IMG/VR virus record: IMGVR_UViG_3300037420_000246
Span: 3,642-67,641 of that record
Direction: 5' to 3' (one strand)
Source of the DNA: a virus
DNA: 64,000 bases
A program made the translations under genes and the position numbers. The notes under the pieces were generated by a model. It did not search any database. It was not told where the DNA came from and saw nothing but the letters and a program-made list of their open reading frames with translations. Each line of letters begins with the position of its first letter. The first letter of the stretch is position 1. This document shows positions 1,020 through 63,258 of this stretch, piece after piece.

Positions 1020-1072
1020 AATTTGACAAGAAGCCTTGTTGATGATATAATTCTGAATTAAAGGAGAAGGCA

Positions 1073-1516
1073 TTGGGAGTATTCTCAGACCATCTTAAGA
1101 AGAACATCGAACGTGTTCTGCAAGAAGTGAACTACAAGATTACTTGGGTTGCCTATCAATACTTTGTCCGTATTGTTCAGAATTCTCCCCATGTAGGTGA
1201 CGGTCCGTATGTAGCGGGCCATTTTGTTGCCAACTGGTTTCCTGCTGTGAACAGCTTCGACATGAGCATCATTGGAGCTACAAGCAACGGTTCAGATAGC
1301 ATAGCTAGGATTGAAAGCATTGTTAAGGAAAGCAATGCTTTCTTTCAGAAGGACGGGTTTGTTTCTTTGTCCAACAATCTTAATTATGCGTTCCGTGTCG
1401 AATACGCTGGCTGGCCTGCTGGTAAAGACCCAATCTCCGGTTGGACTTGGACTGGTATGCGCAGAGTGTATGCACCTGTGGCTAACTCGTTCACCTATCT
1501 GAAGACAATCATATGA
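1073..1516 (+). CDS. Putative head-tail joining/neck protein
   Basis: TTG start preceded by strong SD AAGGAGAAGG; 147 aa; position between capsid-proximal and tail genes. Confidence 0.5.
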   Translation: MGVFSDHLKKNIERVLQEVNYKITWVAYQYFVRIVQNSPHVGDGPYVAGHFVANWFPAVNSFDMSIIGATSNGSDSIARIESIVKESNAFFQKDGFVSLSNNLNYAFRVEYAGWPAGKDPISGWTWTGMRRVYAPVANSFTYLKTII

Positions 1517-2930: not shown

Positions 2931-4301
2931 ATGCCAAAGAAATTAACACAAGAAGAATATCTAGCTAACTGCATTAACGCCCACGGCTCGACGTACAATT
3001 TAGAAAGAATTGTGTATCGCGGAACGATGTCGAAAGTTACTGTCGGTTGTCCAATCCATGATTGGTTTGAAGTGAAAGCCGGATCATTTATGAGAGGGAC
3101 TGGTTGCGCCAAGTGTGCTGCAGATAAGCGGGGTCTTAACAGACGACTCTCAGAGGGAGAATTCTTATCGCGGAGTGTCGCGCGGCATGGACAAGACTAC
3201 GGATACCAATTTGTAAACTACGTGAAGACGGATGTTAAGGTCAAGATTCTCTGCAATCGCTGCGAATGCACCTTCGAGATGACGCCAGAGTGTCATATGG
3301 CAGGACAAGGCTGTCGTGATTGTGGATACGAGAAGAATGGCTTGAATAAGCGCAGCAAGTTTGAAGAATTCGTCAAAGCCTCGCGTGAACATCACGGACA
3401 AAAGTTCAATTATGATGGTGTTGATTGGAGAGGAAATAAACAATCTATTGAGTTGTTTTGCCCTGTCCATCAAGAATATTTCACGACTACGCCAGCACTG
3501 CACGCGAAAGGAGCGGACTGCCCTAAATGCGCTAAACAACGAGGTGGTCTGAAGAACCGCAGTAATACCGAGAAGTTTGTCAAAGATGGAACTGAGAAGT
3601 TTGGAACACGATTTGACTACTCTGAAGTGGACTACATCAAAAGCAATCTTAAAGTGAAGATTCGTTGTGTTACGCATAATAAGTGGCTTTCTGTGACTCC
3701 GAATATGCATCTAGCAGGTTTTGGAGGTTGTGCGGATTGCGCTAAAGAAGCCACGAGTGAGCGTTGTAAGAAGTCAACGGAGCGTTTTGTCCTTGACGCC
3801 ACTAAGGAGCACGGTTCTCGGTATGGCTATGATCGTTCCATTTACAACGGTGCGTACAACAAAGTAGAAATTCATTGCAGAGAGCACGGCTATTTCTGGC
3901 AGAGCGCTGGCGCTCACATAGCAGGCCGAGGTTGCTCTAAATGTGGTAACAACGGGTATAAAGTAAACAAATCTGGGTATCTTTATGTTCTATACGATGG
4001 TGAATTAACTAAGGTTGGCATTACAAACAGGAACCCTGAAATCCGTTGCAAGTTTATTGCTAAGAAGTCTGAACGCCCATTCGAAGTTTTGAAGTTTTAC
4101 CACTTCGATGACGGCGGAGTTCCGTTGAGTCTTGAAACAAAACTGCTGAGTGAGTTGTGGCAAACATATAAGTCTCCAACAGAGAAATTTTCAGGATACA
4201 CCGAGTGCTTTTACCATGTTGACCAAGCCGCCCTACTAAACCGAATTGAATCACTAATCAAAGAGCAACATAGCTCTTACTCCGCTTCACCAGAAGCATA
4301 A
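2931..4301 (+). CDS. Homing-endonuclease-like protein: four zinc-ribbon repeats + C-terminal T5orf172/GIY-YIG-like domain
   Basis: Four ~60-aa repeats each ending G-x-G-C-x-[KD]-C-[AG]; C-terminal GYLYVLYDGELTKVGIT motif resembling GIY-YIG/T5orf172; inserted between tail tube and chaperone genes with its own flanking hairpins. Confidence 0.6.
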   Translation: MPKKLTQEEYLANCINAHGSTYNLERIVYRGTMSKVTVGCPIHDWFEVKAGSFMRGTGCAKCAADKRGLNRRLSEGEFLSRSVARHGQDYGYQFVNYVKTDVKVKILCNRCECTFEMTPECHMAGQGCRDCGYEKNGLNKRSKFEEFVKASREHHGQKFNYDGVDWRGNKQSIELFCPVHQEYFTTTPALHAKGADCPKCAKQRGGLKNRSNTEKFVKDGTEKFGTRFDYSEVDYIKSNLKVKIRCVTHNKWLSVTPNMHLAGFGGCADCAKEATSERCKKSTERFVLDATKEHGSRYGYDRSIYNGAYNKVEIHCREHGYFWQSAGAHIAGRGCSKCGNNGYKVNKSGYLYVLYDGELTKVGITNRNPEIRCKFIAKKSERPFEVLKFYHFDDGGVPLSLETKLLSELWQTYKSPTEKFSGYTECFYHVDQAALLNRIESLIKEQHSSYSASPEA

Positions 4302-5229: not shown

Positions 5230-8200
5230 ATGGCACTAGAGGCAAGCTCACTACAAGTCGTGGTTTCCGGGTCGGGAATCGAGGCGACAACTAAACAACT
5301 TAACGACCTCGCAGCGGCTGGCGAGAAAGCCGAAAAGAGTACAACTAAGCTTGCTCAATCCTCTAAGGATAGTTCCAAAGCCCAAGTAGATGCTGCCCAA
5401 CAAGCTGCCTCTCAGTACAACGCCATCATTGATATGATGACGGAGAAATCCAACACATATTATGCCGACAAAGCTGCCAAAGCTGCTATTGCTGCTCAGC
5501 AGGAGCTTTACGATGGCATGGTAATGATGGATAAGTTGCGTGCCGGTGCTGAAGGTTATTACGCCGATCAGGCGGCCAAGCGAGAGAAAGACCATCAAGA
5601 TGTATTGGCGAAACAGCAAGCTCAGAAGAACGCTGCTGAGGCACGCTATGCTGCTGAACAAGAGCTTGCCAATCGCATGAATGCTGCCTTCGATAAGCGG
5701 CAAGCTCAGACTGAAGCTATGGCGATTAATGCCAAATTGGATGCTGACACAAAAGCTCTGAAAGCCGATGGAGATGCGTTCACAGCTATGCTTAAGACGC
5801 AAGCTGAAAAAGTTGGCTTGACTACTAAAGAACTCCGCGAATATAACGCAGAACAGCTTCGTACTAAAGCAGCACAGCTTGGACTTATGCAGGCAGGCAG
5901 TGAGTCCAAGGATAAAATTGACGGTTATATCAACACCATCAAGAATGCAAAAGGCCCGCACGAGTCCTTTAACCTCCTCACCGCAGGCTCTGCACGCGAA
6001 CTGATGGTGTTGACTCACGAGCTTAGCCAAGGGCAGTTTCAGCGCTTTGGTGGCTCTCTTATCGTGTTGGCAGAACGTATTAACTTCTTGCCTAGCGTGC
6101 TTGAAAAAGCTGGTGCTTTTGCAGCAAGCCTTGGAGTGAGTTTGGGAGTGCTTGTTGCTGCTGTGGCTGCTGTTGTTGCAGTGGTGGGTACAGCAATATG
6201 GACATTCACTAAGAGTGGTACCGCACTGAAAGAAATGCGCAATGAAGTGATTTTGACAGGTCACTCAATCGGTGTTACAGGCGATCAACTGTATGACATG
6301 GCTAACAAGATTGGCGAGGCTACAGGCAAGTTTGGTGCTGCTCGTGAAGCTGTTATCCAACTGGCATCCACTGGCAAATTCACTGCTGACCAAATCAAGT
6401 TGATTACTGAAGCTGCTGTAGGTCTTGAAAAGTATGGTGGTGTTGCAATTGACAACACAATCAAGCAATTCGAAAAGCTTGCTGCTGAGCCGATTAAAGG
6501 CGCTCAGCGTGGATTCAAAGGTGTGTCTGAAGCAGCAATGGAGCTTGATAAGCAGCTTCATTTCCTCACTCCACAAATGCTGGATGAAATTATCCATTTG
6601 GAGCGTATTGGAGATGCAGCAGGGGCATCCAAGAAAGCAATTGGTAGTTTGGCCGAAGAAGAGAAAAAGCGTGTTCAGGAGCTTAAGAACAACCTTACTC
6701 CTATTGGCGTCCTGTTTGACACCATTGCCGAGAAGGCTTCTAAGATGTGGAATAACGTATTCCATAAGAAGTCGCTGACAGAGCAACTGGAAGATGCCAA
6801 GGACAATCTCGCTCAGATTCAAGGTGTGAATGGTGTACATCCTGAACAAACCCACCAAGCCAATGCTATTGCAGAAGTGGCTAGGCTTGAAAAGAAAATC
6901 AGGGATCAAGCTGAGAAAGAAAAGCAAGAGCAGCACAACAAAGAGGTTGCTCGCACAGCAGAATTGGCGCTTATCCATCGCCGTACTCTGCTTGATATGG
7001 GCAAGGATGAGGATACTCTAACAGCACAAACTGCGCGCGATGCAGCAGACCGTGCAGCGATTAAGGCAGCAGGGCTTAAGTCTGAACTATTCTCTGCTGA
7101 AGCAGATGCCGAAGCAATGGCAATCATTGAGAAGAAATACAAGCAGAAAGTTACACCAACTCCCGGCCTTGGTATGTCCAAGGTGAATTCGCGTATCGCT
7201 GAATTGCAAATGGAGTTTGAGAAGGCTTCTTATTTCGCAGATAAGGAAATGAAGCTGGAGCAAGACAAGGCTAAGCATCATGAAGTGTCTGCCCTCAAAC
7301 TTTATAACGATCAGCAGAAGTATTTCAATGATCGACAGAAACTGATTGATGATACAGAGGCAAAAGAGATTGCTGCCACTAACCTATATGACCACGGTGC
7401 GAAGAACAAGGACAAGCTGGCAGAAGAGGCTGCAACCAAACGTTTTGAAATTGAGAAGCGCTACGACATGCTGCGAGGAAAACTTGCTGCTGATCGAGAC
7501 GCCGCCGACACTGCATTGGAACGTGCAAACAAAACTGCCGAAGACAACCGGGAAGAAATGTATGTCAAAGGCACTCAAACTATCAATGCTGAGACAAAAG
7601 CCCTTCAAGACAAGATCGCTGGCTACAATCTGATCCCTGAAGCCATCCGTAAGGCTGGCATCAGTGAGAAACAGATGCAGGACTATTTCACTCAGGCTGA
7701 GATTGACAACATCCAAGAGCGCATTGATGCTCTGAAGCAGTTCGATGGGGTTGACGGCACAATGATGGCGGCTGAAATCGCTCGTCTGAATGCTCGGAAG
7801 AATGCTTTGGATGACAAGCGCAAGGCTCAGAAGGCTTGGGAGGATGTGCAGGCTGGGAATGCTGCCGCCCTTAACACCCCAGCAGCAATGAAAGCCAACG
7901 CTGCTGAACAAGTGAAACTGTGGAAAGACGCTGGCAACGAGATTCAGAAAGCGCTTACACAAGCTTTTGGTGAATCTGGTAAAGCTGCTGGTGAAATGTT
8001 TAAAGCATTCTCGGAAGGCCAAGCTAATCAAATCGATTTGACACAGAAAGTTGCTGAAGCTAACAGGCGCACCGACCTCTCAAAAATTGAGCAAACACAG
8101 CTTATCACAGCCCTGCAAAATCAGCAAGAGCAGAATCAGTTGAACATGTATGGCAACATGGCGAATGCTGCATCACAGTTTTTTGACCATCAGTCTAAGG

Positions 8201-23777: not shown

Positions 23778-24409
23778 TCCTCCACCAATCCTTTCTTCAA
23801 TTCTTCCTTGCGCTCTTCATAACTCTGAATAAGTCTATTATGATGCTCGATGTTCTGCTCTGCAATCTTAATGCTGCTGTCAAGCTGCGCCAGTTGCTCG
23901 TTGATTTCCTTGTTGCGACGGAGTTGTTCGGCAGTGAGTGGCTTGGGTTCGTAGAGTGTCCACCAACCCCCATCAAACCTGTAGGAGATTTCAGACTCAC
24001 TGTATCGACATCCCGCACCTTCTTCTCCAATGTTCCCGTAGTGCCAACAGCGCCACTCATTGCCATCTCGGGTCATTGTGAGTTTGTCATTTCCACCAAT
24101 GGTGTTGATGAAGTGGAATACATCAGGATACTTGCTAGGCTTTTTACTTTCTTCTGCAATCACCCAGCCACCATCGCTCACACACCCCTCCACCTCATAC
24201 TTATAAGTTTCGCCCCAAGGAACCTCGTCAATCTCGTTGGCCCACCCTCGTGCCCACTTCACTTTCACAATATCTCCTTCTACTTTCGCACTGTGAGTGA
24301 AGCCGGGATTAGACCTGAGACGAAAGCTAAACTTGTTTGGCAATTTCATTGTTATTCCCTCCTTAAAATTGTTATGCACATTATACATTGAATTCTTGTT
24401 TGCTGTCAA
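23774..24409 (-). CDS. Hypothetical protein with C-terminal coiled coil
   Basis: 211 aa ORF; Trp/Gly-rich core, K/E-rich C-terminal helix. Confidence 0.5.
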   Translation of the reverse strand: MTANKNSMYNVHNNFKEGITMKLPNKFSFRLRSNPGFTHSAKVEGDIVKVKWARGWANEIDEVPWGETYKYEVEGCVSDGGWVIAEESKKPSKYPDVFHFINTIGGNDKLTMTRDGNEWRCWHYGNIGEEGAGCRYSESEISYRFDGGWWTLYEPKPLTAEQLRRNKEINEQLAQLDSSIKIAEQNIEHHNRLIQSYEERKEELKKGLVEE

Positions 24410-28199: not shown

Positions 28200-28596
28200 C
28201 GCCACTCCCCTCCTCAATTTGTAAACGACATTCTACACTATCTTCTAGAGGGCTGTCAAGAATTTTATTTATCCTCCCCTCTAGATAAGCAAGCTCCCGC
28301 ATACTCTTCATAATATTCTTATGATCTTGCGGAAGATGGCCCTTCTCGAAGAGCCAGTTGGCGAGCTTCCACACTTTAGCTTTGTAGTAGTTGTGTTGGC
28401 TATCTTTCTTGACGATGATGCCTTTTGGGAAACTCTCGTCAAATTCTACGAAGTAGGGAAAGCGCAGCACAACATCCCGCTTACGCTCAATGATGGCTAC
28501 AAGGACGGCTTGGGCAAGCTTTGCGTAGTCTTCATCGCTGGCTTGATGAGTGGCATCTACAACGTCCTTGCGAGGCTTCCAGCGCTTAATCTGCAT
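28189..28596 (-). CDS. Hypothetical protein
   Basis: 135 aa ORF. Confidence 0.5.
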   Translation of the reverse strand: MQIKRWKPRKDVVDATHQASDEDYAKLAQAVLVAIIERKRDVVLRFPYFVEFDESFPKGIIVKKDSQHNYYKAKVWKLANWLFEKGHLPQDHKNIMKSMRELAYLEGRINKILDSPLEDSVECRLQIEEGSGDGH

Positions 28597-33344: not shown

Positions 33345-34604
33345 TTACTGTATTTTACTTGGCAGGTTGTTGTGTGTCAAGGGGTTAGTGTCAACATTGT
33401 TGAATAGCCACTCGTCTACAAAGTCTACTACATCTTGGTACAGTTCTGGGTAGGTAGCTTCGGTCATAAAACCCTCAACCTCTTGCGAAAACCTAGGAAA
33501 AGTGGCTTTTATGGCTTTCTCCACCTCCCATGCTTGCCGACCTGTCATCTGGAAAATCTCCGTCTTACCCAATCTAAAGCCAGCCCTCCTAAGATTTCTA
33601 TCGTGATCCGTCAAGCGCCTGTCCGGTGCATTTGAAATCCCGTACCCTGTAAAACCGTGCCTGCCTTCTACGAGCAAGATGTACAAGTGCCCATCTTTGT
33701 TTGTATCAAACCCACCCTTAGCACAACTGGGACACCCACTGCAATTGTAGAGGAAAGCGTCAGCCCGAGCCAGCCAGTTGCCATGCTCCTCGCAGTGCAT
33801 CACGCATCTGCTGTCAAAACCTGAATACTCCCCATCCCAATCTACAAACTTGTACTTCAAGCCTCGTTCTGCAATCGTCTTTGTTATTAGATGTTGCCTT
33901 TGTTCGGGCGTCCATCTAAAGTGTGGTCCACACCGACACGATTTTGCCCCTCGCTTTAATGACTCTACGTGCTGCTCAAAAACTCCTGTGCAAACGCCTG
34001 CCTTCACAAAATCATCATTGCTGCACACGGAGCATGTAACATTCCAATAATTTCTTTTCTTTCCAGACCCTCGTAGACTTCTAGAGAAGGTAGTCCCTTC
34101 AGGGTACAACCCGGCCTCTAAAAACATAATAATCATGTCGTCATCAGATTTTCTGTAGCGATCCCCAGTAACCTTTGCTGCACAACTTGGACAGCCAACA
34201 TCCAACAAAAAGTTTGTTACAGTGGTTGAAGCCCAGCAAAACTGACAAGTCTGACACTCCAACTTCAGCTTAGTGGCAACCCCTTTGTATTCCTCTGCGT
34301 ACCCTATAAGTCTATACCCTTTGTCTTCTGCTGATCTTTGGACCTTCACCAACGTCTGTTTTTCTGTCAACCTTGCAAACTTAGAACATCCGCAAGGTTC
34401 AATGTTACGATCAATTATCGATTTTGGAGTTAGATAAATTCCATCACCGAACATTTCAGGGTCTTCACTACAAGTGTGGCACTTCACTTTGTAAATCCGA
34501 TCTTTCTTACCCCGGCGGTAGCCATCAAATGCTAGTATTTCTAACTGACCGTCCTTGCCATAACGTTTTCCTATAAATTTTGTATCATCAAATGGAGGAC
34601 TCAA
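33345..34604 (-). CDS. Homing-endonuclease-like protein: zinc-ribbon repeats + T5orf172/GIY-YIG-like domain (paralogue of 2931..4301)
   Basis: Repeated GCPSCA / GCSGCPSCA Cys modules; C-terminal GHLYILLVEGRHGFTGYGIS motif; same architecture as the + strand gene at 2931. Confidence 0.6.
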   Translation of the reverse strand: MSPPFDDTKFIGKRYGKDGQLEILAFDGYRRGKKDRIYKVKCHTCSEDPEMFGDGIYLTPKSIIDRNIEPCGCSKFARLTEKQTLVKVQRSAEDKGYRLIGYAEEYKGVATKLKLECQTCQFCWASTTVTNFLLDVGCPSCAAKVTGDRYRKSDDDMIIMFLEAGLYPEGTTFSRSLRGSGKKRNYWNVTCSVCSNDDFVKAGVCTGVFEQHVESLKRGAKSCRCGPHFRWTPEQRQHLITKTIAERGLKYKFVDWDGEYSGFDSRCVMHCEEHGNWLARADAFLYNCSGCPSCAKGGFDTNKDGHLYILLVEGRHGFTGYGISNAPDRRLTDHDRNLRRAGFRLGKTEIFQMTGRQAWEVEKAIKATFPRFSQEVEGFMTEATYPELYQDVVDFVDEWLFNNVDTNPLTHNNLPSKIQ

Positions 34605-34809: not shown

Positions 34810-34839
34810 ATTATAACATATTTATTGATTCTTGTCAAG
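34810..34839 (-). promoter_or_regulatory. Sigma70-like promoter (minus strand): -35 TTGACA, 18-nt spacer, -10 TATAAT
   Basis: Plus-strand ATTATA at 34810-34815 and TGTCAA at 34834-34839, between primase-helicase stop and the 61-aa gene. Confidence 0.5.
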
Positions 34840-34847
34840 TTTTAAGA

Positions 34848-36506
34848 CTAAAACGTAGGAGCTTCGTTATCTACAAGAACAACTTCCCCGGTTTCATCGT
34901 CAATATAGAATTCATCGCAGATGCCCAAATAGCCATGTGCCCGGTTTTTCATAACAGTTAGCCTCACATTACCACGGCTCTTGTCAGGGCGAATTTGAGG
35001 CTCAAGTCCAAGCACAGTCCAAGCAAGCTGCTCAAGACAAGAAGAACTGCGAAGTGCCTCCTTAGTAATAGGAACCCAAAAAGGTTCTGATTCCTTACCT
35101 TTGGGCGGTTTGAAGCCTTCTGCGATAGAGCGGTTAAGATGCGACACGAGAATTACACAAACATCACTAGCAGCGCAGAATGCCGCTAACTTGGTCATCA
35201 CCATATCCAGTTCACGGCGCTCATCTGTAATTCCTGCATCCCCAAGAATCATGCCGATGTGATCCAGCAGTAGGTACTTGACTTTGTTGGCGTGAACAAA
35301 ACTCTTAATTTTGTTCATGAGTGTGTCAAGTGGCATAGAGCCGAAATGGTCGAGCAAAAACACTTCTCGCTCTTTCGTCACCCAGTTATATGCATCTTGA
35401 ATCTCTTCTTGGGAGGCGCAGGCCAGCGGGTTCTCTTTGAAACGGTTGTAGTTCACCTTCAGCCTCATTGACATAAGCCGTTGGATAGACTCTTTAGCTG
35501 TTTCTTCCAACATCATCATTCCGATTCGTTCGCCAGCTTCAAGGAATCTATACATAAAATGGCTTGTGACGAGGCTTTTTCCAACATTCGAAGGCGCAGT
35601 GAATACAACAAGCTCCCTTGGTCGGAAGCCGTGTAGTTTGTGATCTAGCTTAGGGAAAACTCCGGTATATACGCCCTCTACTCGTGGTGCCAGAATTTCG
35701 TCTAGTTCAATACTACTTGCCGTAATGATCTTCTCAGCAGTGTAAGGCTTTTTACCAAACTGCACCAGTTTTGCCAACTCATCCGATTTTCCGGCTTGGA
35801 GCATGTCGGACGCATCTTTGAATCCGTCTGGATAATCAACCACTGTCAATTCCATATCGGACAGCACAGCGGCTACATCCTCTCGTGCCTCAAGTCCGCG
35901 CTTAATTTTCTTAAGACGCTCTACAGGTGTAGCACAATCTGAATCAAATGCGATACAGCAGGCTTCAAATGATCGAATAAACGCCTCATTGTGAATTGTG
36001 GCTTCTTGTGCGTTAGCTGTGCCCATTGGGACACTGACGACGAACGGCTCCAAGTCTTCAAACTTAGTCCCTTTAACTTGGTCCCGCATGGCTTGGTAGA
36101 GACTTAAACAGTCCAATTCACCTTCCACATAAGTTAGTGAAGACCTTTTACGTTTAATTCCTTCTGCAACATCTTGACCAAACAATTTATTTGTGATCTG
36201 GACTGATGCCACAACACTCCAATGACCCTTCTCCCCCTTGCTTTTACTAAGGTCCATCTTTTTGAAGCCGCGAACGACTCCTTTTTGGTCGTATGATGGG
36301 AAGTACAGAGCTTCAAGCGTGCGCCCGTCACGCTCAGATACAGCACCCCTAACACCGAATTTTTCGCACGTTTCTTTACGAATCTTCCGGTCTGGAATAT
36401 CCACAAACGGAAGTTCCAACACATCCTTCAAAGTTTCTTTCGGCACGAATTCAGTCATTTGTTTTGTCTGTCCTTTCCAATAACCCATCAACCCTCCCCA
36501 CACCAC
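34848..36506 (-). CDS. Bifunctional DNA primase (TOPRIM) / DnaB-like replicative helicase
   Basis: TOPRIM acidic motifs (YVEGELDCLSLYQ; IAFDSDCATP) N-terminal; Walker A APSNVGKS, Walker B LLLDHIG, VSHLNRS helicase motifs C-terminal. Confidence 0.8.
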   Translation of the reverse strand: MVWGGLMGYWKGQTKQMTEFVPKETLKDVLELPFVDIPDRKIRKETCEKFGVRGAVSERDGRTLEALYFPSYDQKGVVRGFKKMDLSKSKGEKGHWSVVASVQITNKLFGQDVAEGIKRKRSSLTYVEGELDCLSLYQAMRDQVKGTKFEDLEPFVVSVPMGTANAQEATIHNEAFIRSFEACCIAFDSDCATPVERLKKIKRGLEAREDVAAVLSDMELTVVDYPDGFKDASDMLQAGKSDELAKLVQFGKKPYTAEKIITASSIELDEILAPRVEGVYTGVFPKLDHKLHGFRPRELVVFTAPSNVGKSLVTSHFMYRFLEAGERIGMMMLEETAKESIQRLMSMRLKVNYNRFKENPLACASQEEIQDAYNWVTKEREVFLLDHFGSMPLDTLMNKIKSFVHANKVKYLLLDHIGMILGDAGITDERRELDMVMTKLAAFCAASDVCVILVSHLNRSIAEGFKPPKGKESEPFWVPITKEALRSSSCLEQLAWTVLGLEPQIRPDKSRGNVRLTVMKNRAHGYLGICDEFYIDDETGEVVLVDNEAPTF

Positions 36507-36658
36507 TCCAACACAGACTCGATCATATTAGCCTCAAATTTATCGAGCCATCGGATTACAACACCAGACCGAGTCAGGCACCAAACTTCAACATTAGAGT
36601 ATCCATACTGACGCTTCTCGTAACGTGCGTTATTATCGCCTTTAATCGGAATCTTCAT
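36488..36658 (-). CDS. Hypothetical small protein (56 aa)
   Basis: Short in-frame version of track ORF 36488..36784 starting at ATG 36658 (MKIPIKGDNN); overlaps both neighbours. Confidence 0.25.
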   Translation of the reverse strand: MKIPIKGDNNARYEKRQYGYSNVEVWCLTRSGVVIRWLDKFEANMIESVLEWCGEG

Positions 36659-36842
36659 TCGTCCCGTCCACAATTTTAGCTTCATGGCATAGCGCAGCAA
36701 GAAGCTCCAACACTTCCTGTGCAATATTTTCAGCGCCATAGCTGCAATCGAAATAAGCAAGCTCGTCAACGGAAAAACATCCACGCAACTGCTTTTCCTG
36801 AGTAACTAACACAGCACCTTTGTGTTTGCGAATTTTAATCAT
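36642..36842 (-). CDS. Hypothetical protein
   Basis: 66 aa; ATGA coupling with upstream gene. Confidence 0.45.
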   Translation of the reverse strand: MIKIRKHKGAVLVTQEKQLRGCFSVDELAYFDCSYGAENIAQEVLELLAALCHEAKIVDGTNEDSD

Positions 36843-37114
36843 ACACTCTCCAAAATCTTCCTATCAATTTCCTCAATCCTTTGCCGTGCCTCTCGCATAG
36901 CCTTTCGGTATGTGCTAAACAGCTTCTCCTTCCAAAACTTCTTCCCACACATATAAGGACCACTTTCTGTGCTGTAGTATACAGTGGTGTCGGTAACCTT
37001 CGTCACAAAGCATGTATAAACTGCTGCAACATGCCTGTCATCGTACCCTTCAATCTTTCCCGGCTCGTACACAACTGTCTTGTATTTAGTGTGCCCTTGC
37101 TTTACTTTGCTCAT
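36839..37114 (-). CDS. Hypothetical protein
   Basis: 91 aa ORF. Confidence 0.5.
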   Translation of the reverse strand: MSKVKQGHTKYKTVVYEPGKIEGYDDRHVAAVYTCFVTKVTDTTVYYSTESGPYMCGKKFWKEKLFSTYRKAMREARQRIEEIDRKILESV

Positions 37115-37305
37115 TCGTCCTCCTTAACTTCGTCCCACTTACCGTCACAGTGATAGTCGATACAGTCAAGCGCTTGTTCTACGCTAATGTATTCTTCAGG
37201 CGAGCAGTAATCTTCATCGTTACCAAAAGTCGCATAGAAAAACCTGCCTTTAGAATACACGCTGTTCCCGCTTGCTAGAATCTTTCGGGCGTCATCTCTT
37301 GTCAT
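37111..37305 (-). CDS. Hypothetical protein
   Basis: 64 aa ORF. Confidence 0.45.
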   Translation of the reverse strand: MTRDDARKILASGNSVYSKGRFFYATFGNDEDYCSPEEYISVEQALDCIDYHCDGKWDEVKEDE

Positions 37306-37315
37306 AATATCTCCT

Positions 37316-37519
37316 TCAGAAACACAAATATGCAGCCTTCACCTTGTCTTGCAGCTTATTCAGCTTCCGCAGCAAGTCCTTGTATGTTTCATAAAGCTGC
37401 GCATAATCCTCATACAGAACAAACTCGCCAGAAACACTTTCCACGGCTGCAACGGGAACGCTGTCAGGTGCATCGAAATCAAATCGCTTTACAGTCATTT
37501 CAATACCCATTAATGTCAA
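37316..37519 (-). CDS. Hypothetical protein
   Basis: 67 aa ORF. Confidence 0.45.
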   Translation of the reverse strand: MTLMGIEMTVKRFDFDAPDSVPVAAVESVSGEFVLYEDYAQLYETYKDLLRKLNKLQDKVKAAYLCF

Positions 37520-37753
37520 TTAATACCCATTCGGAAACCACTGCTTATACGTCCACTTGCGCAAATCCCAAAACATCCTATCATATGAAATGTCGCAATG
37601 ATAGCTGAGCCATGCTGATGAGTCTAAATCGAAATTGATTTTGTCAATCACTTGAATGCGCCGTCCCCGAATGTTGTACACAATTCTGTTACGAATTAAA
37701 AACGCAAGAAAAGTGACAATGCACAGACAAAGAATGTAATAAAGGGCGTGCAT
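37520..37753 (-). CDS. Small membrane protein (possible NfeD-like partner of SPFH protein)
   Basis: 77 aa; N-terminal TM YYILCLCIVTFLAFLI then beta-rich basic segment; directly downstream of SPFH gene. Confidence 0.45.
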   Translation of the reverse strand: MHALYYILCLCIVTFLAFLIRNRIVYNIRGRRIQVIDKINFDLDSSAWLSYHCDISYDRMFWDLRKWTYKQWFPNGY

Positions 37754-37762
37754 TTGTTCTCC

Positions 37763-38557
37763 TTAGTTTTTACCAACATTAACCATACCTTTGAAATCAT
37801 ACGGAATAACAACCGTCTGTACCTTACCTTCAGCAATACCTTCTGCAATTTTCATCTGTGCCTGAGCTTGCATATAGTTGATTGCGCCAGCATTCGCATT
37901 CAGAGCAGCAATGCGTTCCGCCTCCTTCTTGGCGGTCTGCACCTCCACCTCTTTTGCAGCGTACTCGCTCTTAGCCTGCACAAGACGATTAGCAGCATCC
38001 TTCACAGCATCCGATGGCTGAATACTTTTTACTTGCACTTGCGAGACAACAATCGCATTATCCAACTTCTCTTCTTTCAGCGTATCCTTCACTTGCAGCA
38101 TAATCTTCTGCTCGATTTCAGAGCGGCTGTCATTCATTTGCAGCGAAGGATACTCTCGTGCCACTTTATACACGGCATTGCGCACAGTGGTGTACAGATA
38201 GGAATGCATCAGGTAAGTAGTGCCGTCATCAGCAACAGTGTGGAAGCTATGACTCTTGTTCACGTACAGATCGCTAACACTTGCAGGATTGATGTTGTAG
38301 ACGAAGGTGACATCAAAATCCTTCATAGTGCTGTTGTCTGCTGCCAGAGGGGTGAGGTCAGACACTTCCGCTGCGATTTCCTTGACAGGAAACTTGATGA
38401 TGTCGCCTACAATGGTTTGGTTGAAGCTGCCCGGAAGACGCTCTTGTGCGTCAACAGTTTTGTCGAAATTGACACGCAGGCCCACTTCGCCAGTTGGTAC
38501 ACGAGAGCAAGCAGACAGGGACGCTACGATTGCTACAGCCAGAATAATTTTCTTCAT
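37763..38557 (-). CDS. SPFH/band-7 (stomatin/HflKC-like) domain lipoprotein
   Basis: Signal peptide with lipobox LSAC; SPFH-like core and C-terminal A/E/K coiled coil (VQAKSEYAAKEVEVQTAKKEAERIAALNA). Confidence 0.6.
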   Translation of the reverse strand: MKKIILAVAIVASLSACSRVPTGEVGLRVNFDKTVDAQERLPGSFNQTIVGDIIKFPVKEIAAEVSDLTPLAADNSTMKDFDVTFVYNINPASVSDLYVNKSHSFHTVADDGTTYLMHSYLYTTVRNAVYKVAREYPSLQMNDSRSEIEQKIMLQVKDTLKEEKLDNAIVVSQVQVKSIQPSDAVKDAANRLVQAKSEYAAKEVEVQTAKKEAERIAALNANAGAINYMQAQAQMKIAEGIAEGKVQTVVIPYDFKGMVNVGKN

Positions 38558-38625
38558 GTGTTCTCCTTAAAATTGTTAGGCTTCTCGCTAAGAAAAGCCA
38601 TTCTACATCACTTATAAGATTGTTG

Positions 38626-39279
38626 TCAAGTCACTTTGAATGTCTTGTTGATCTGCTCTGCAATCAGTCGTGCAAGAACAACGTGCTCAAGCTGCGTTAC
38701 ACCTTCCTCAAGCCTCACTTCTAAATAGTGAATCCACGAACGAATAGTTCCATTGACGTACAAGCGGCTCATCGTAAGACCTTCTGGCAGAATGACGCGA
38801 GCAACCTCTTTAGCAATACCGCGATCAAGAGCACGCTTGTACGTATCTTGTACAATTGCCAGCAACATTTTCTGTTCACTCTCCCACCAATCTTTCAACA
38901 ACTCATCGTCCGTTGCCAAACTGTTTTGCCGGTTCTTGGTGTCTTGCATTCGCAACTCTCGTAGACAGAAAGCTTGTTCTAGCTGAGTCACATCAGCGTA
39001 GCGCTGGCTAAACTCTTGAAACTTGAAGCTGCCATGCCGCAACAGTTGCCTTGCAATATCTCGCGGAGACTCCACCTCTACAACACAGTTTGCCATCTCG
39101 AACGGACTCCAGTGCTTATGCTTCTTGAGATAGTTAAGAAGCTTATCCGCCGTGTTCGTGTTCATCTGATTAGCGGGGTTGCTAACACGAGCACAATACG
39201 CGATAAGTTCTTGTGCATCCTTCATGCCAGTTTCTTCCACTGGTTGCGTAACAGCAATCAAACGTGCTTTAAAAGTCAA
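38626..39279 (-). CDS. thyX: Flavin-dependent thymidylate synthase ThyX
   Basis: ThyX signature RHGSFKFQEFSQRY (RHRx7SxRY). Confidence 0.85.
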   Translation of the reverse strand: MTFKARLIAVTQPVEETGMKDAQELIAYCARVSNPANQMNTNTADKLLNYLKKHKHWSPFEMANCVVEVESPRDIARQLLRHGSFKFQEFSQRYADVTQLEQAFCLRELRMQDTKNRQNSLATDDELLKDWWESEQKMLLAIVQDTYKRALDRGIAKEVARVILPEGLTMSRLYVNGTIRSWIHYLEVRLEEGVTQLEHVVLARLIAEQINKTFKVT

Positions 39280-39596
39280 TTCTTATCCTTTCGAAAGAAT
39301 ACATGCTCAATCAAATCCTGCACCACTTCATTACCCTTTTTCGTATCCACCTGTGCAAGACCATAACGCTCTCCAGACTCTTTGTCGCAGTCAAACACGC
39401 CTTGAATAGCGCCCATCTCTACAAGAGCTTCGTAGATGTCATACTCCCAACAACTGTCGCCAAAAGGACGCTTGCCCGAAAAGCCTTCCCCTTCCAGCCA
39501 CAACGTCTCCAGCAGACGGAAGAAATATTCTCTCAGGTTACATGCATCCACACCCCGAAATTTGTATTCGTACTTAAGAATTTCATCAAAAGTCAT
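39276..39596 (-). CDS. Hypothetical protein
   Basis: 106 aa ORF. Confidence 0.5.
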   Translation of the reverse strand: MTFDEILKYEYKFRGVDACNLREYFFRLLETLWLEGEGFSGKRPFGDSCWEYDIYEALVEMGAIQGVFDCDKESGERYGLAQVDTKKGNEVVQDLIEHVFFRKDKN

Positions 39597-39784
39597 GCCA
39601 CTTCCTCCTTCACAACAATCTTAACCTCATTCCCACCTTCAAACCTGAAGTGGTATTCCACATACCCCCAATACGGCATTCTCGTCGTATATCCCAACAC
39701 ATGAAGCTTCTGCCCATAAAACTCAACAGGCTTCACACACAAGAATGCTTCGTGTAGAGCTTTTATGTGTTCTAGTTTATTCAT
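39593..39784 (-). CDS. Hypothetical protein
   Basis: 63 aa ORF. Confidence 0.45.
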   Translation of the reverse strand: MNKLEHIKALHEAFLCVKPVEFYGQKLHVLGYTTRMPYWGYVEYHFRFEGGNEVKIVVKEEVA

Positions 39785-39975
39785 CGCTCACGCTCCACAA
39801 TCTTGACACAATTTTTAATGGTTTTCTTCTTAGTGAAATAGCCTTCATTGACCTCAAGAAGGAACACAATACCCAACACAGCATAAAACTTCCAACTGTG
39901 CCAATCGATGCCAACGGAGTCAAGAATAGCGCCAAGGAAGGCGTACCCGACACAACCAATAAGAAACTTAATCAA
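39781..39975 (-). CDS. Small membrane protein
   Basis: 64 aa; two hydrophobic segments. Confidence 0.45.
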   Translation of the reverse strand: MIKFLIGCVGYAFLGAILDSVGIDWHSWKFYAVLGIVFLLEVNEGYFTKKKTIKNCVKIVERER

Positions 39976-42237: not shown

Positions 42238-42591
42238 TTAGCTAATACGCACAGTATGAATAATTTCTGCTGGATGATTAGGGAACATTTTGTTCCATTT
42301 CTCAATAGCATCAGCCACATTTTCAGCAAAACGTTCAGTGTCTCGCGGATTCAGCTTAAACCCAATGTAATACGGATCGCCGTGGTACAAATCGAGACAC
42401 TCACAAGTGGGCCAATCCTTCTTGCTGTACAAAAACTCTGAAATCCCTTCATCATCAATGTAAGCTTCATCCTCGTCAGACAACGTTAGATATTCCCTTA
42501 CAAACTGCTCGACATCGTATTTTTCGTCAAACTCACGACCAACTGCCAACACTGCACTGTATGATACGCCCATGTTCTCTCTCCTTAACAA
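42238..42591 (-). CDS. Hypothetical acidic protein
   Basis: 117 aa ORF. Confidence 0.5.
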   Translation of the reverse strand: MLRRENMGVSYSAVLAVGREFDEKYDVEQFVREYLTLSDEDEAYIDDEGISEFLYSKKDWPTCECLDLYHGDPYYIGFKLNPRDTERFAENVADAIEKWNKMFPNHPAEIIHTVRIS

Positions 42592-42983
42592 TAGTAAATT
42601 TGATTACCTACACGTTTCCCCTTCTTGCCTCTCGCCCACCAAGGCTTAATCCTCCTGTGGTGAAAGAATTCCGTGCAGTCTTCTACAACAGCAGGCAGTG
42701 TAGCAGCGATCTTATACTTCTGCAAGAACTTTGTAGGTAGCTTCGTAGAAATCTTACCGCGCTTGTACCAGCTAAACTGATTGTGTTCCCTGATTGTCTC
42801 GCACACTGTCAGCCCACGCTTCCTTGCCCTGTTCTTGATGGTTTGCAGTGTTGCTGCTACACCGCGTACAGACTCACCGCTTGCCTCCCTAAACACACTG
42901 TACTGAAGGCAGGCTTCATCACTCACAGACGCCTTCACATGGCTCACAGAGGCAAGCAAGATGGCTGCTAGGGCGAGCCTCAA
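42585..42983 (-). CDS. Secreted SleB-like cell wall hydrolase (Hydrolase_2-like)
   Basis: TTG start; signal peptide MRLALAAILLASVSHVKA; VFREASGESVRGVAATLQTIKNRARKRGLTVCETIREHNQFSWYKRG resembles the SleB/CwlJ EARGE...NR...QFS motif. Confidence 0.5.
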   Translation of the reverse strand: MRLALAAILLASVSHVKASVSDEACLQYSVFREASGESVRGVAATLQTIKNRARKRGLTVCETIREHNQFSWYKRGKISTKLPTKFLQKYKIAATLPAVVEDCTEFFHHRRIKPWWARGKKGKRVGNQIYYC

Positions 42984-44091: not shown

Positions 44092-44121
44092 ATTCTAGAA
44101 CACTTCTCTGAGCCCTGTCAA
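44092..44121 (-). promoter_or_regulatory. Sigma70-like promoter for leftward operon: -35 TTGACA, 18-nt spacer, -10 TAGAAT
   Basis: Plus-strand ATTCTA at 44092-44097 and TGTCAA at 44116-44121, about 35 nt upstream of the first minus-strand gene. Confidence 0.5.
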
Positions 44122-44189: not shown

Positions 44190-44218
44190 TTGACATCCCT
44201 CTACAAGCCCCGTACAAT
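44190..44218 (+). promoter_or_regulatory. Consensus sigma70 promoter for rightward early operon: TTGACA-N17-TACAAT
   Basis: TTGACA 44190-44195, 17-nt spacer, TACAAT 44213-44218; 40 nt upstream of ATG 44258. Confidence 0.6.
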
Positions 44219-63229: not shown

Positions 63230-63258
63230 TTGACAAATAGCATTGTTCATGTTACAAT
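63230..63258 (+). promoter_or_regulatory. Consensus sigma70 promoter TTGACA-N17-TACAAT
   Basis: TTGACA 63230-63235, 17-nt spacer, TACAAT 63253-63258; 30 nt upstream of ATG 63289. Confidence 0.6.

Follow-up and report, generated by a model that had tools for sequence, protein, structure and literature searches.

A phage gene for a predicted SPFH lipoprotein carried as slot cargo beside a membrane protein that is not NfeD-like

Cage-forming proteins of the SPFH (Band-7) type, such as HflK/C, prohibitin, stomatin, erlin and flotillin, are well understood structurally. In phages, SPFH/Band-7 open reading frames (ORFs) were listed as early as 2006 for the T4-like phages 44RR, Aeh1 and RB43 (PMC1524935), and in 2011 one was recorded next to an annotated superinfection-exclusion gene in the Vi01-like phage PhiSH19 (PMC3220722). 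Peptides of the homologue in Sajous1 have been detected (PMC10892097), the SPFH gene of Burkholderia phage CSP3 has been described as a moron and the idea that it modulates FtsH has been raised (PMC10269572), and the authors of the N4-like phage GIB1 called the reason for the presence of SPFH unclear (PMC13239085). Our survey of the literature found annotations and speculation, and no functional study of a phage SPFH protein; the 2009 classification of SPFH proteins mentions neither lipoproteins nor phages. Here we describe a gene of this kind, which encodes a protein of 264 amino acids (aa) at 37763..38557 of a 64,000-nucleotide (nt) stretch of phage DNA (positions 3,642 to 67,641 of IMG/VR virus record IMGVR_UViG_3300037420_000246; hereafter, the window). 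Both this ORF and the adjacent one of 77 codons (37520..37753) are present on the minus strand.

The closest described relatives belong to the family PHROG 200, annotated "lipoprotein", whose members occur in Vi01-like Ackermannviridae (PhiSH19, Sajous1 gp200 and phiEa2809), Acinetobacter phages (AM24, Herod and the AbTZA1 group), the N4-like GIB1 and cyanophages (BUCT-ZZ01 and S-CREM1). The window protein resembles them in size (approximately 260-275 aa) and in its succession of lipobox, SPFH domain, long helix and short C-terminal tail, and genes of the family are, as here, often found among replication or early genes. It differs from the copies of isolated phages in that it is only 24-45% identical to them and belongs to a clade of ~90-kb metagenomic phages, sister to chromosomal genes of Oxalobacteraceae; unlike many PHROG 200 phages, the window also lacks a small gene for a protein with two transmembrane (TM) helices directly upstream of the SPFH gene. 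The first-pass annotation of this DNA, made from the letters alone, had regarded SPFH as unusual phage cargo. This opinion is contradicted by the existence of the PHROG 200 family, by the phage listings that go back to 2006 and by the 30 viral structure clusters of BFVD that match the protein at E<=1e-3. A large database contained more than 3427 homologues, many of them on ~90-kb phage-like contigs and others on bacterial chromosomes, and tblastn matched the protein in 35 GenBank phages. The window gene joins a family of phage SPFH lipoproteins that is known but functionally uncharacterised.

The assignment is based on profile, pattern and fold comparisons. The Pfam profile Band_7 (PF01145) matched residues 19-213 (37919..38503) over profile positions 2-176 of 176, with E=5.7e-17 and 62.8 bits against a curated cutoff of 23.6, which bears out the SPFH/band-7 domain proposed at first pass; PHROG 200 matched residues 3-243 (E=2.5e-30). 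The N-terminus, MKKIILAVAIVASLSAC, encoded at 38507..38557, fits the pattern of a lipoprotein signal peptide, MKK-IILAVAIVAS-LSAC, with a basic n-region, a hydrophobic h-region and a lipobox that ends in Cys17 and is followed by Ser at position +2. In an alignment of 74 homologues, Cys17 was conserved in at least 90% of the sequences. A PROSITE-type lipobox pattern ([LVI][ASTVI][GAS]C within the first 35 residues) was present in 72 of the 74 (in 36 of 37 phage copies and 36 of 39 bacterial copies), so the lipoprotein signal that had been read from this one protein is kept by nearly the whole set. Position +2 was never Asp across these homologues. The match of the window protein to Pfam LPAM_1 was sub-threshold (E=0.059). 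A few members of the family, including that of Synechococcus phage S-CREM1 (1429..2247 of locus L080) and the protein P0020, have no Cys at the lipobox position and begin with a longer hydrophobic stretch; a switch between TM and lipid anchors appears to have taken place within the family.

The AlphaFold2 (AF2) model of the protein, built from 74 sequences, has a mean predicted local distance difference test score (pLDDT) of 84. It comprises a signal helix (residues 2-15), an alpha/beta SPFH domain that starts at residue 17, a single long Ala/Glu/Lys-rich helix (residues 183-242; 37832..38011) and two short C-terminal strands (248-250 and 258-260). There is zero linker after Cys17, and the Band_7 match begins only two residues past it. 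The C-terminal segment that contains the strands (residues 248-260, VVIPYDFKGMVNV; 37778..37816) includes P252, F255 and G257, which are invariant in the 74-sequence alignment. When the model was compared with the PDB by Foldseek, ~257 columns were aligned to full-length protomers of cage-forming SPFH proteins, namely HflK/C with FtsH (9cz2, E=3e-13; 7vhq; 7wi3), PHB1/2, erlin1/2, stomatin and QmcA-YbbJ (8z5g_A, E=8.5e-8 for QmcA), and the probability was 1.00 for HflK/C, PHB, erlin, stomatin, QmcA, flotillin and MVP. The coiled coil that had been likened to those of HflK/C and stomatin is thus seen as one long helix, which, judged from the model, corresponds to the helices that form the coiled-coil wall and the cap in SPFH cages. 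Residues 248-260 sit where HflK/C and stomatin have their cap-forming C-terminal segment and may be equivalent to it.

Searches of the PDB by sequence and by the 74-sequence profile matched no chain, and the fold search alone succeeded. The fold match to cage protomers, combined with this lack of a sequence or profile match, led us to conclude that the 264-aa protein represents a divergent subfamily of SPFH proteins, with a lipid anchor where an N-terminal TM segment is usual. The analysis also showed that the gene is an intact member of the SPFH fold with the full architecture of a cage protomer (SPFH domain, long helix and C-terminal strands).

The genomic setting of the gene was also informative. 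In the window, tail genes occupy the plus strand, and the minus strand carries a block of genes for ribonucleotide reductase, a DNA-polymerase exonuclease subunit, an exonuclease, DNA polymerase, HNH endonucleases, primase/helicase and the flavin-dependent thymidylate synthase ThyX (38626..39279, minus strand; Pfam Thy1, E=1e-35). The SPFH gene is placed between thyX, upstream, and the primase/helicase gene, downstream, with the genes for DNA polymerase, exonuclease and ribonucleotide reductase farther on; replication and nucleotide-metabolism genes therefore lie on both sides of it, in agreement with the replication region named at first pass. No match was returned when the 4 kb around the locus were compared with GenBank phages by megablast, hence no isolated close relative is available. 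Among metagenomic sister phages a common backbone order was recognized (thyX, a variable region, the 77-aa gene, primase/helicase), in which thyX forms the 5' boundary of a variable slot.

The content of this slot differs from phage to phage. The window carries there the 264-aa SPFH lipoprotein only, and L075 lacks an SPFH gene there and has ORFs of 56 and 89 aa and a lipoprotein of 78 aa. The L082 slot encodes proteins of 110 aa (with a signal peptide and a hydrophobic anchor at the C-terminus), 113 aa, 293 aa (an SPFH lipoprotein) and 62 aa; in L083 the products are an anchored secreted protein of 105 aa, a lipoprotein of 78 aa and a further protein of 54 aa; and in L090-L092, 106-aa and 113-aa proteins, a 79-aa lipoprotein, a 119-aa signal-peptide protein and a 55-aa protein. 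The cassettes of L083 and L090-L092 are flanked by ThyX homologues that are 86-92% identical. The 293-aa protein of L082 matched Band_7 (E=2e-30) and PHROG 200 (E=2.7e-50) and is 23% identical to that of the window; the same slot of sister phages holds two unrelated SPFH lipoproteins.

A segment of 42 nt (38528..38569, minus strand), which comprises the ribosome-binding site and the first ten signal-peptide codons, was found by blastn-short to be 100% identical in the window SPFH gene and in the non-homologous gene for the 78-aa lipoprotein of L075. Such identity in otherwise unrelated genes points to exchange of cargo by recombination within the signal-peptide coding sequence, with this segment as the likely junction. 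In close relatives the SPFH gene occupies other contexts (after PolA in L003, and after NAMPT beside tail genes in L077). The variable slot, the shared 42-nt junction and these differing contexts together characterize the SPFH gene as mobile accessory cargo.

Other variation was observed around the slot. The thyX position itself is mosaic: a ThyX of ~217-227 aa is encoded in the window, L083 and L090, and a 341-349-aa Thy1-domain protein in L075 (110..1159) and L082 (1074..2099), with near-identical flanks in L075. The 105-110-aa cassette proteins of L082 (2186..2518), L083 (3211..3528) and L090 (2396..2716) have an N-terminal signal peptide, an acidic or Ser/Ala-rich middle part and a hydrophobic segment followed by an RRKK(Q/A)K tail, which resembles a C-terminal sorting or anchor signal; no family was matched by these proteins. 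In three related phages, L003 (5845..6849), L031 (6819..7850) and L034 (1482..2492), the gene after SPFH encodes another exported protein; it is ~335 aa long, has a signal peptide and one more hydrophobic segment, and belongs to no assigned family.

A sigma-70-like promoter sequence (TTGACA-18 nt-TAGAAT, 11 of 12 consensus positions; 38600..38629, minus strand) overlaps the thyX stop codon approximately 40 nt upstream of the SPFH start codon, and may act as the gene's own promoter. The region is 92% identical in L075, where it stands at the head of the cassette. Nine sites with at least 11 of 12 consensus positions were found in the window, compared with 0.8 expected from shuffles; besides the one above, they are located at 1023..1051, 44190..44218 and 63230..63258 on the plus strand and at 24380..24409, 28230..28259, 33352..33380, 34810..34838 and 44092..44121 on the minus strand. 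Heavy reliance of the phage on host-type promoters seems likely, and these would split the replication block into several units. No terminator-like sites were found in 36400..39800.

Based on these observations, we tentatively favour the view that the window carries an accessory, moron-like gene for a lipid-anchored periplasmic SPFH scaffold, which acts independently of the 77-aa gene and conditions the envelope of the infected cell. The gene would be transcribed by host RNA polymerase, so probably early in infection. Its product would be exported by Sec, lipidated and cleaved at Cys17, and the SPFH domain would then be held flush against a membrane leaflet that faces the periplasm, in either the inner or the outer membrane. 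Oligomerisation through the helix and the C-terminal strands might produce a ring or dome and so close off part of the membrane. The phage would benefit from an envelope conditioned in this way, most likely through hindered entry of competing phages (superinfection exclusion), with mechanical or quality-control stabilisation of the envelope during infection as a close second. We rank a role in exclusion or in the envelope first because of the slot shared with small lipoproteins, the sigma-70-like promoter, the dispensability of the gene in sister phages and the neighbourhood of exclusion genes elsewhere, as in PhiSH19 and phiEa2809, where an annotated superinfection-exclusion gene lies near the SPFH gene. 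Exclusion as the leading role is a guess, and the context lends modest support to an envelope or exclusion role only.

Two known kinds of phage-encoded protein invite comparison. Cor (of phi80 and N15) and Llp (of T5) are, like the window protein, lipoproteins encoded by accessory genes. Llp of T5 is expressed early. The alternative slot occupants of the sister phages, the 78-79-aa lipoproteins, resemble the Cor exclusion family PHROG 1119 weakly (E=7e-5, over residues 1-41 of the 78-aa protein). In contrast to Cor and Llp, the SPFH protein is four times larger, has the fold of an oligomerising scaffold and shows no homology to them; its own match to PHROG 1119 (E=0.0047) covers residues 1-21, the signal peptide, and none was found for the mature SPFH domain. 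The second case is PM0222 (Pmorf0222), an HflK/C-like SPFH protein of a Pasteurella multocida prophage, which occurs in outer-membrane vesicles and signals via TLR1/2 (PMC9872710). Like the window protein it is phage-borne, and the vesicle and TLR1/2 data are compatible with an outer-membrane lipoprotein; it differs in having been studied as a virulence factor of a lysogen, and it is likened here by description, not by sequence.

Several points weigh against the proposed envelope-conditioning role. The promoter of the SPFH gene is no more than a match to the consensus, the slot lipoprotein resembles Cor only weakly and partly through its signal peptide, and where other phages carry a "superinfection exclusion" label, it comes from annotation. 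The proposed oligomerisation, lipidation and localisation of the protein are predictions. The cues for membrane sorting diverge: Ser at +2 directs to the outer membrane under the E. coli rule, and the missing linker suggests retention in the inner membrane, where lipoproteins of E. coli tend to stay when no disordered linker follows the lipidated Cys. Finally, the chromosomal homologues of the protein are ordinary, syntenic genes, which would suit an envelope housekeeping function that the phage has copied no less well than it suits exclusion.

These chromosomal homologues deserve attention. A scan of species-representative genomes revealed copies 57-71% identical to the window protein in Massilia, Telluria, Duganella, Pseudoduganella and Rhodoferax, located in genus-specific conserved synteny and without an NfeD neighbour. 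In a neighbour-joining tree (no support values), the clade of the window's phage was sister to the Oxalobacteraceae clade, and other phage clades were placed farther out. The host is probably a member of the Burkholderiales. The SPFH gene was shown to be under purifying selection, with a nonsynonymous divergence (dN) of 0.16-0.18 and saturated synonymous sites. Its GC content (47%) is close to that of the phage (46%), and the bacterial loci have 61-65%. We considered that a high-GC host might have been the source of a recent capture and rejected this, since the GC of the gene equals that of the phage and the synonymous sites are saturated. The GC content matching that of the phage and the saturated synonymous divergence (dS) with low dN indicate a long-resident, selected phage gene.

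The best-surviving alternative is a supplement of host function, comparable to an auxiliary metabolic gene, in which the phage copy would do the job of the Burkholderiales orthologue in envelope homeostasis or quality control and so preserve a competent envelope while infection proceeds, outside phage-phage conflict. The identity and conserved synteny of the bacterial genes, the sister position of the two clades, the strong purifying selection and the same lipobox and architecture in phage and bacterial copies are all in keeping with such a role. However, a hypervariable slot and a gene that is dispensable in sister phages with the same backbone are more typical of conflict or accessory genes, and we rank a host-function supplement as a close second to exclusion and consider it somewhat unlikely.

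In many phages, a 49-64-aa protein with two predicted TM helices (2-TM) is encoded directly upstream of the SPFH lipoprotein gene. The carriers include a metagenomic clade (58 aa, MIKLIFVLALVTLIVAGVFFFFKESD...), the cyanophages BUCT-ZZ01 and S-CREM1, the T4-like Acinetobacter phage Bhz15 and the Erwinia phage phiEa2809. This mini-gene is located at ~5800..5976 in each of L012, L014, L016, L019, L020, L023, L024, L026, L029, L030 and L032, at 4778..4954 in L001, at 1244..1405 in L080, at 1053..1214 and 1208..1480 in L079, and, unannotated, at ~1300..1500 in L081. The small 2-TM proteins matched no Pfam or PHROG family. In about 5 of 20 loci the 58-aa gene is split by a frameshift at a poly-T run encoding FFFF (L011, 5800..5974; L013, 21..195; L015; L017, 3635..3807; L018, 5801..5973), which could be an error of metagenome assembly at the homopolymer or a sign of phase-variable expression.

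A tblastn search of the window for the 58-aa partner or an analogue gave no significant match, and the spacer of 68 nt between thyX and the SPFH gene is too short to encode one. A 64-aa ORF at 39781..39975 (minus strand; MIKFLIGCVGYAFLGAILDSVG...), ~1.2 kb upstream of the SPFH gene and beyond thyX, has two hydrophobic segments by eye and no detectable similarity to the 2-TM partners of other phages. Beside the bacterial SPFH homologues, a small 2-TM ORF was found at 1 of 41 loci and is probably unrelated. The conserved partner of phage SPFH lipoproteins is plausibly the 2-TM mini-gene rather than the 77-aa gene. The favoured reading of the window gene can be widened: phage SPFH lipoproteins might be a class of devices that build cages in the periplasm and serve in conflict between phages or between phage and host, for instance by closing off entry sites or receptors on their periplasmic side, and which are exchanged here as promoter-equipped slot cargo by signal-peptide recombination and which work elsewhere with the upstream 2-TM mini-protein. 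A generalisation of this breadth is speculative, and we think it unlikely as a whole.

The structural similarity to HflK/C raises the question of FtsH. The cage of E. coli HflK/HflC resembles the window protein in the fold of the full protomer, in an SPFH domain that faces the periplasm (predicted here) and in the long helix and C-terminal strands used for cage closure. In the corresponding alternative, the phage protein would form a periplasmic cage on the inner membrane, enclose FtsH and alter the turnover of membrane proteins, whether those of the phage or those of the host. The best structural match is indeed the HflK/C protomer in its complex with FtsH (9cz2, 7vhq and 7wi3), the missing linker could favour the inner membrane, and the same idea has been put forward for phage CSP3 (PMC10269572). 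The differences are nevertheless considerable: the window protein has a lipid anchor and no N-terminal TM helix, is encoded by a single gene instead of a hetero-pair, and is only ~17-19% identical to HflK/C (below 20%), with no sequence, profile or NCBIfam match that would indicate orthology and no SPFH chain of the PDB recovered by sequence or by the 74-sequence profile. Furthermore, the +2 residue is never Asp, so that the E. coli rule predicts the outer membrane, and none of the phage and bacterial loci inspected has an FtsH-related gene in the vicinity. Modulation of FtsH therefore appears improbable.

Still less probable is a device for the timing of lysis, in which the SPFH scaffold would organise or restrain a holin or spanin. 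Such a role is suggested by phiEa2809, where the SPFH gene lies just downstream of Rz-like spanin genes, and by the holin-sized 2-TM mini-protein encoded directly upstream of SPFH in many phages. However, the window has no 2-TM gene beside SPFH, a distance of ~4 kb separates SPFH from the only lysis-like gene found (an endolysin-like ORF, 42585..42983), and the SPFH gene stands behind a sigma-70-like promoter among replication genes, not among late genes.

The remaining question concerns the 77-aa ORF (37520..37753, minus strand), which the first-pass annotation had joined to the SPFH gene as an SPFH-NfeD-like pair. This ORF is a real gene. It has a strong Shine-Dalgarno sequence (TAAGGAGAACAAATG) and lies 9 nt past the SPFH stop codon, the SPFH start has the same Shine-Dalgarno context, and its dN/dS is 0.4 in comparison with an 81%-identical homologue. 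A word-indexed search found only 2 clusters for the protein, and an exhaustive HMMER search was needed to reveal the family (phrog_25285), for which it found 47 cluster representatives with lengths of 72-99 aa. Common to them are a hydrophobic helix at the N-terminus, an Arg (R21) that is invariant and precedes a nearly invariant Asn, and the C-terminal motif SYDxMxWDLRKWTYKQFYP. The stretch after the TM helix (RNRIVYNIRGRR) is strongly basic, which, by the positive-inside rule, indicates that the conserved C-terminal domain is probably cytoplasmic, on the opposite side of the membrane from the Sec-exported lipoprotein.

Structure prediction did not reveal any similarity to NfeD. The AlphaFold model of the 77-aa protein (pLDDT 90.8, 46 sequences) is all-helical, with helices at residues 2-42, 57-62 and 69-72 and zero strands, in place of the short beta-rich segment that had been proposed. 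Foldseek found no structural neighbour of this model in the PDB, and the protein had no Pfam match at E<=1, including NfeD (PF01957). NCBIfam gave no meaningful match for either protein (noise only for the 77-aa protein, and no HflK/HflC match for the SPFH protein), and no defence-system family among the PADLOC-DB profiles was matched by either at E<=1. Of the small TM protein announced downstream of SPFH, the adjoining gene and its N-terminal TM helix are real; the likeness to NfeD is not.

The distribution of the two genes leads to the same result. A 77-aa homologue was found near SPFH in none of 29 IMG/VR SPFH loci, in none of ~40 bacterial SPFH loci and in none of the GenBank phages inspected, which amounts to more than 60 loci with SPFH alone; the only GenBank phage with a homologue, IME207, has no SPFH gene. 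Conversely, SPFH was present within 4 kb in 1 of 14 IMG/VR loci of the 77-aa family (L082) and missing over that distance in at least 10, and the family occurs without it in L075/L076, L083-L095 and IME207. L075 is particularly instructive. It contains the closest homologue of the 77-aa protein (81% aa identity) and shares the window backbone (upstream of thyX, the 3' end of the 106-aa gene is 100% identical in nt; downstream, the 67-aa gene product is 96% identical in aa), and this backbone carries the 77-aa gene without SPFH, which means that the pair is not a conserved module. In the comparison of the 77-aa genes of the window and L075, the 5' 25 codons (TM helix) have a dS of 1.07 and 48% aa identity, and the other 52 codons a dS of 0.07 and 96% aa identity; the mosaic region seems to have its 3' boundary within this gene.

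The 77-aa protein is therefore a separate, conserved membrane protein of the phage backbone, which belongs to an uncharacterised family and is not an NfeD homologue. Its gene shares with the QmcA-YbbJ and other SPFH-NfeD operons (SPFH1/2/5) the vicinity of an SPFH-fold gene, as a small adjoining membrane-protein gene, and differs from them in profile, fold, predicted topology and co-occurrence; NfeD partners have been documented only for the SPFH1, SPFH2 and SPFH5 subfamilies (PMC2636767). The idea of a two-gene module, with the 77-aa protein as a mini-NfeD partner that binds or regulates the SPFH oligomer, can draw on the co-oriented, closely spaced genes with the same strong Shine-Dalgarno context, on the membrane association of both products and on L082, where an SPFH lipoprotein is likewise encoded one gene upstream of a 77-aa homologue, yet the missing PF01957 match, the all-helical model with no PDB neighbour, the predicted location of the two domains on opposite sides of the membrane (cytoplasm and periplasm), the occurrence of each gene without the other and the restriction of documented NfeD partners to those three subfamilies make it very hard to credit, and as a conserved module it is in effect refuted.

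Elsewhere in the window, two large ORFs of the HNH/endonuclease families (PHROG 681 and 559) were noted, one in the tail region (2931..4301, plus strand) and the other between the genes for DNA polymerase and primase/helicase (33345..34604, minus strand). Both are likely homing endonucleases.

To conclude, the result mainly corrects an over-interpretation, since the SPFH gene has no NfeD partner and such cargo is not rare. Although SPFH cages are so well described, we found no role assigned to lipid-anchored, periplasm-facing SPFH proteins, either in phages or in Burkholderiales. The locus analysed here offers a compact test case for such proteins, with a single gene, a putative promoter of its own, sister phages that have no SPFH gene or carry other slot lipoproteins, and a close chromosomal orthologue in culturable hosts (e.g. 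Massilia and Duganella). If the protein does form a periplasmic cage that excludes phages or stabilises the envelope, this would provide a function for PHROG 200 and for thousands of metagenomic homologues.

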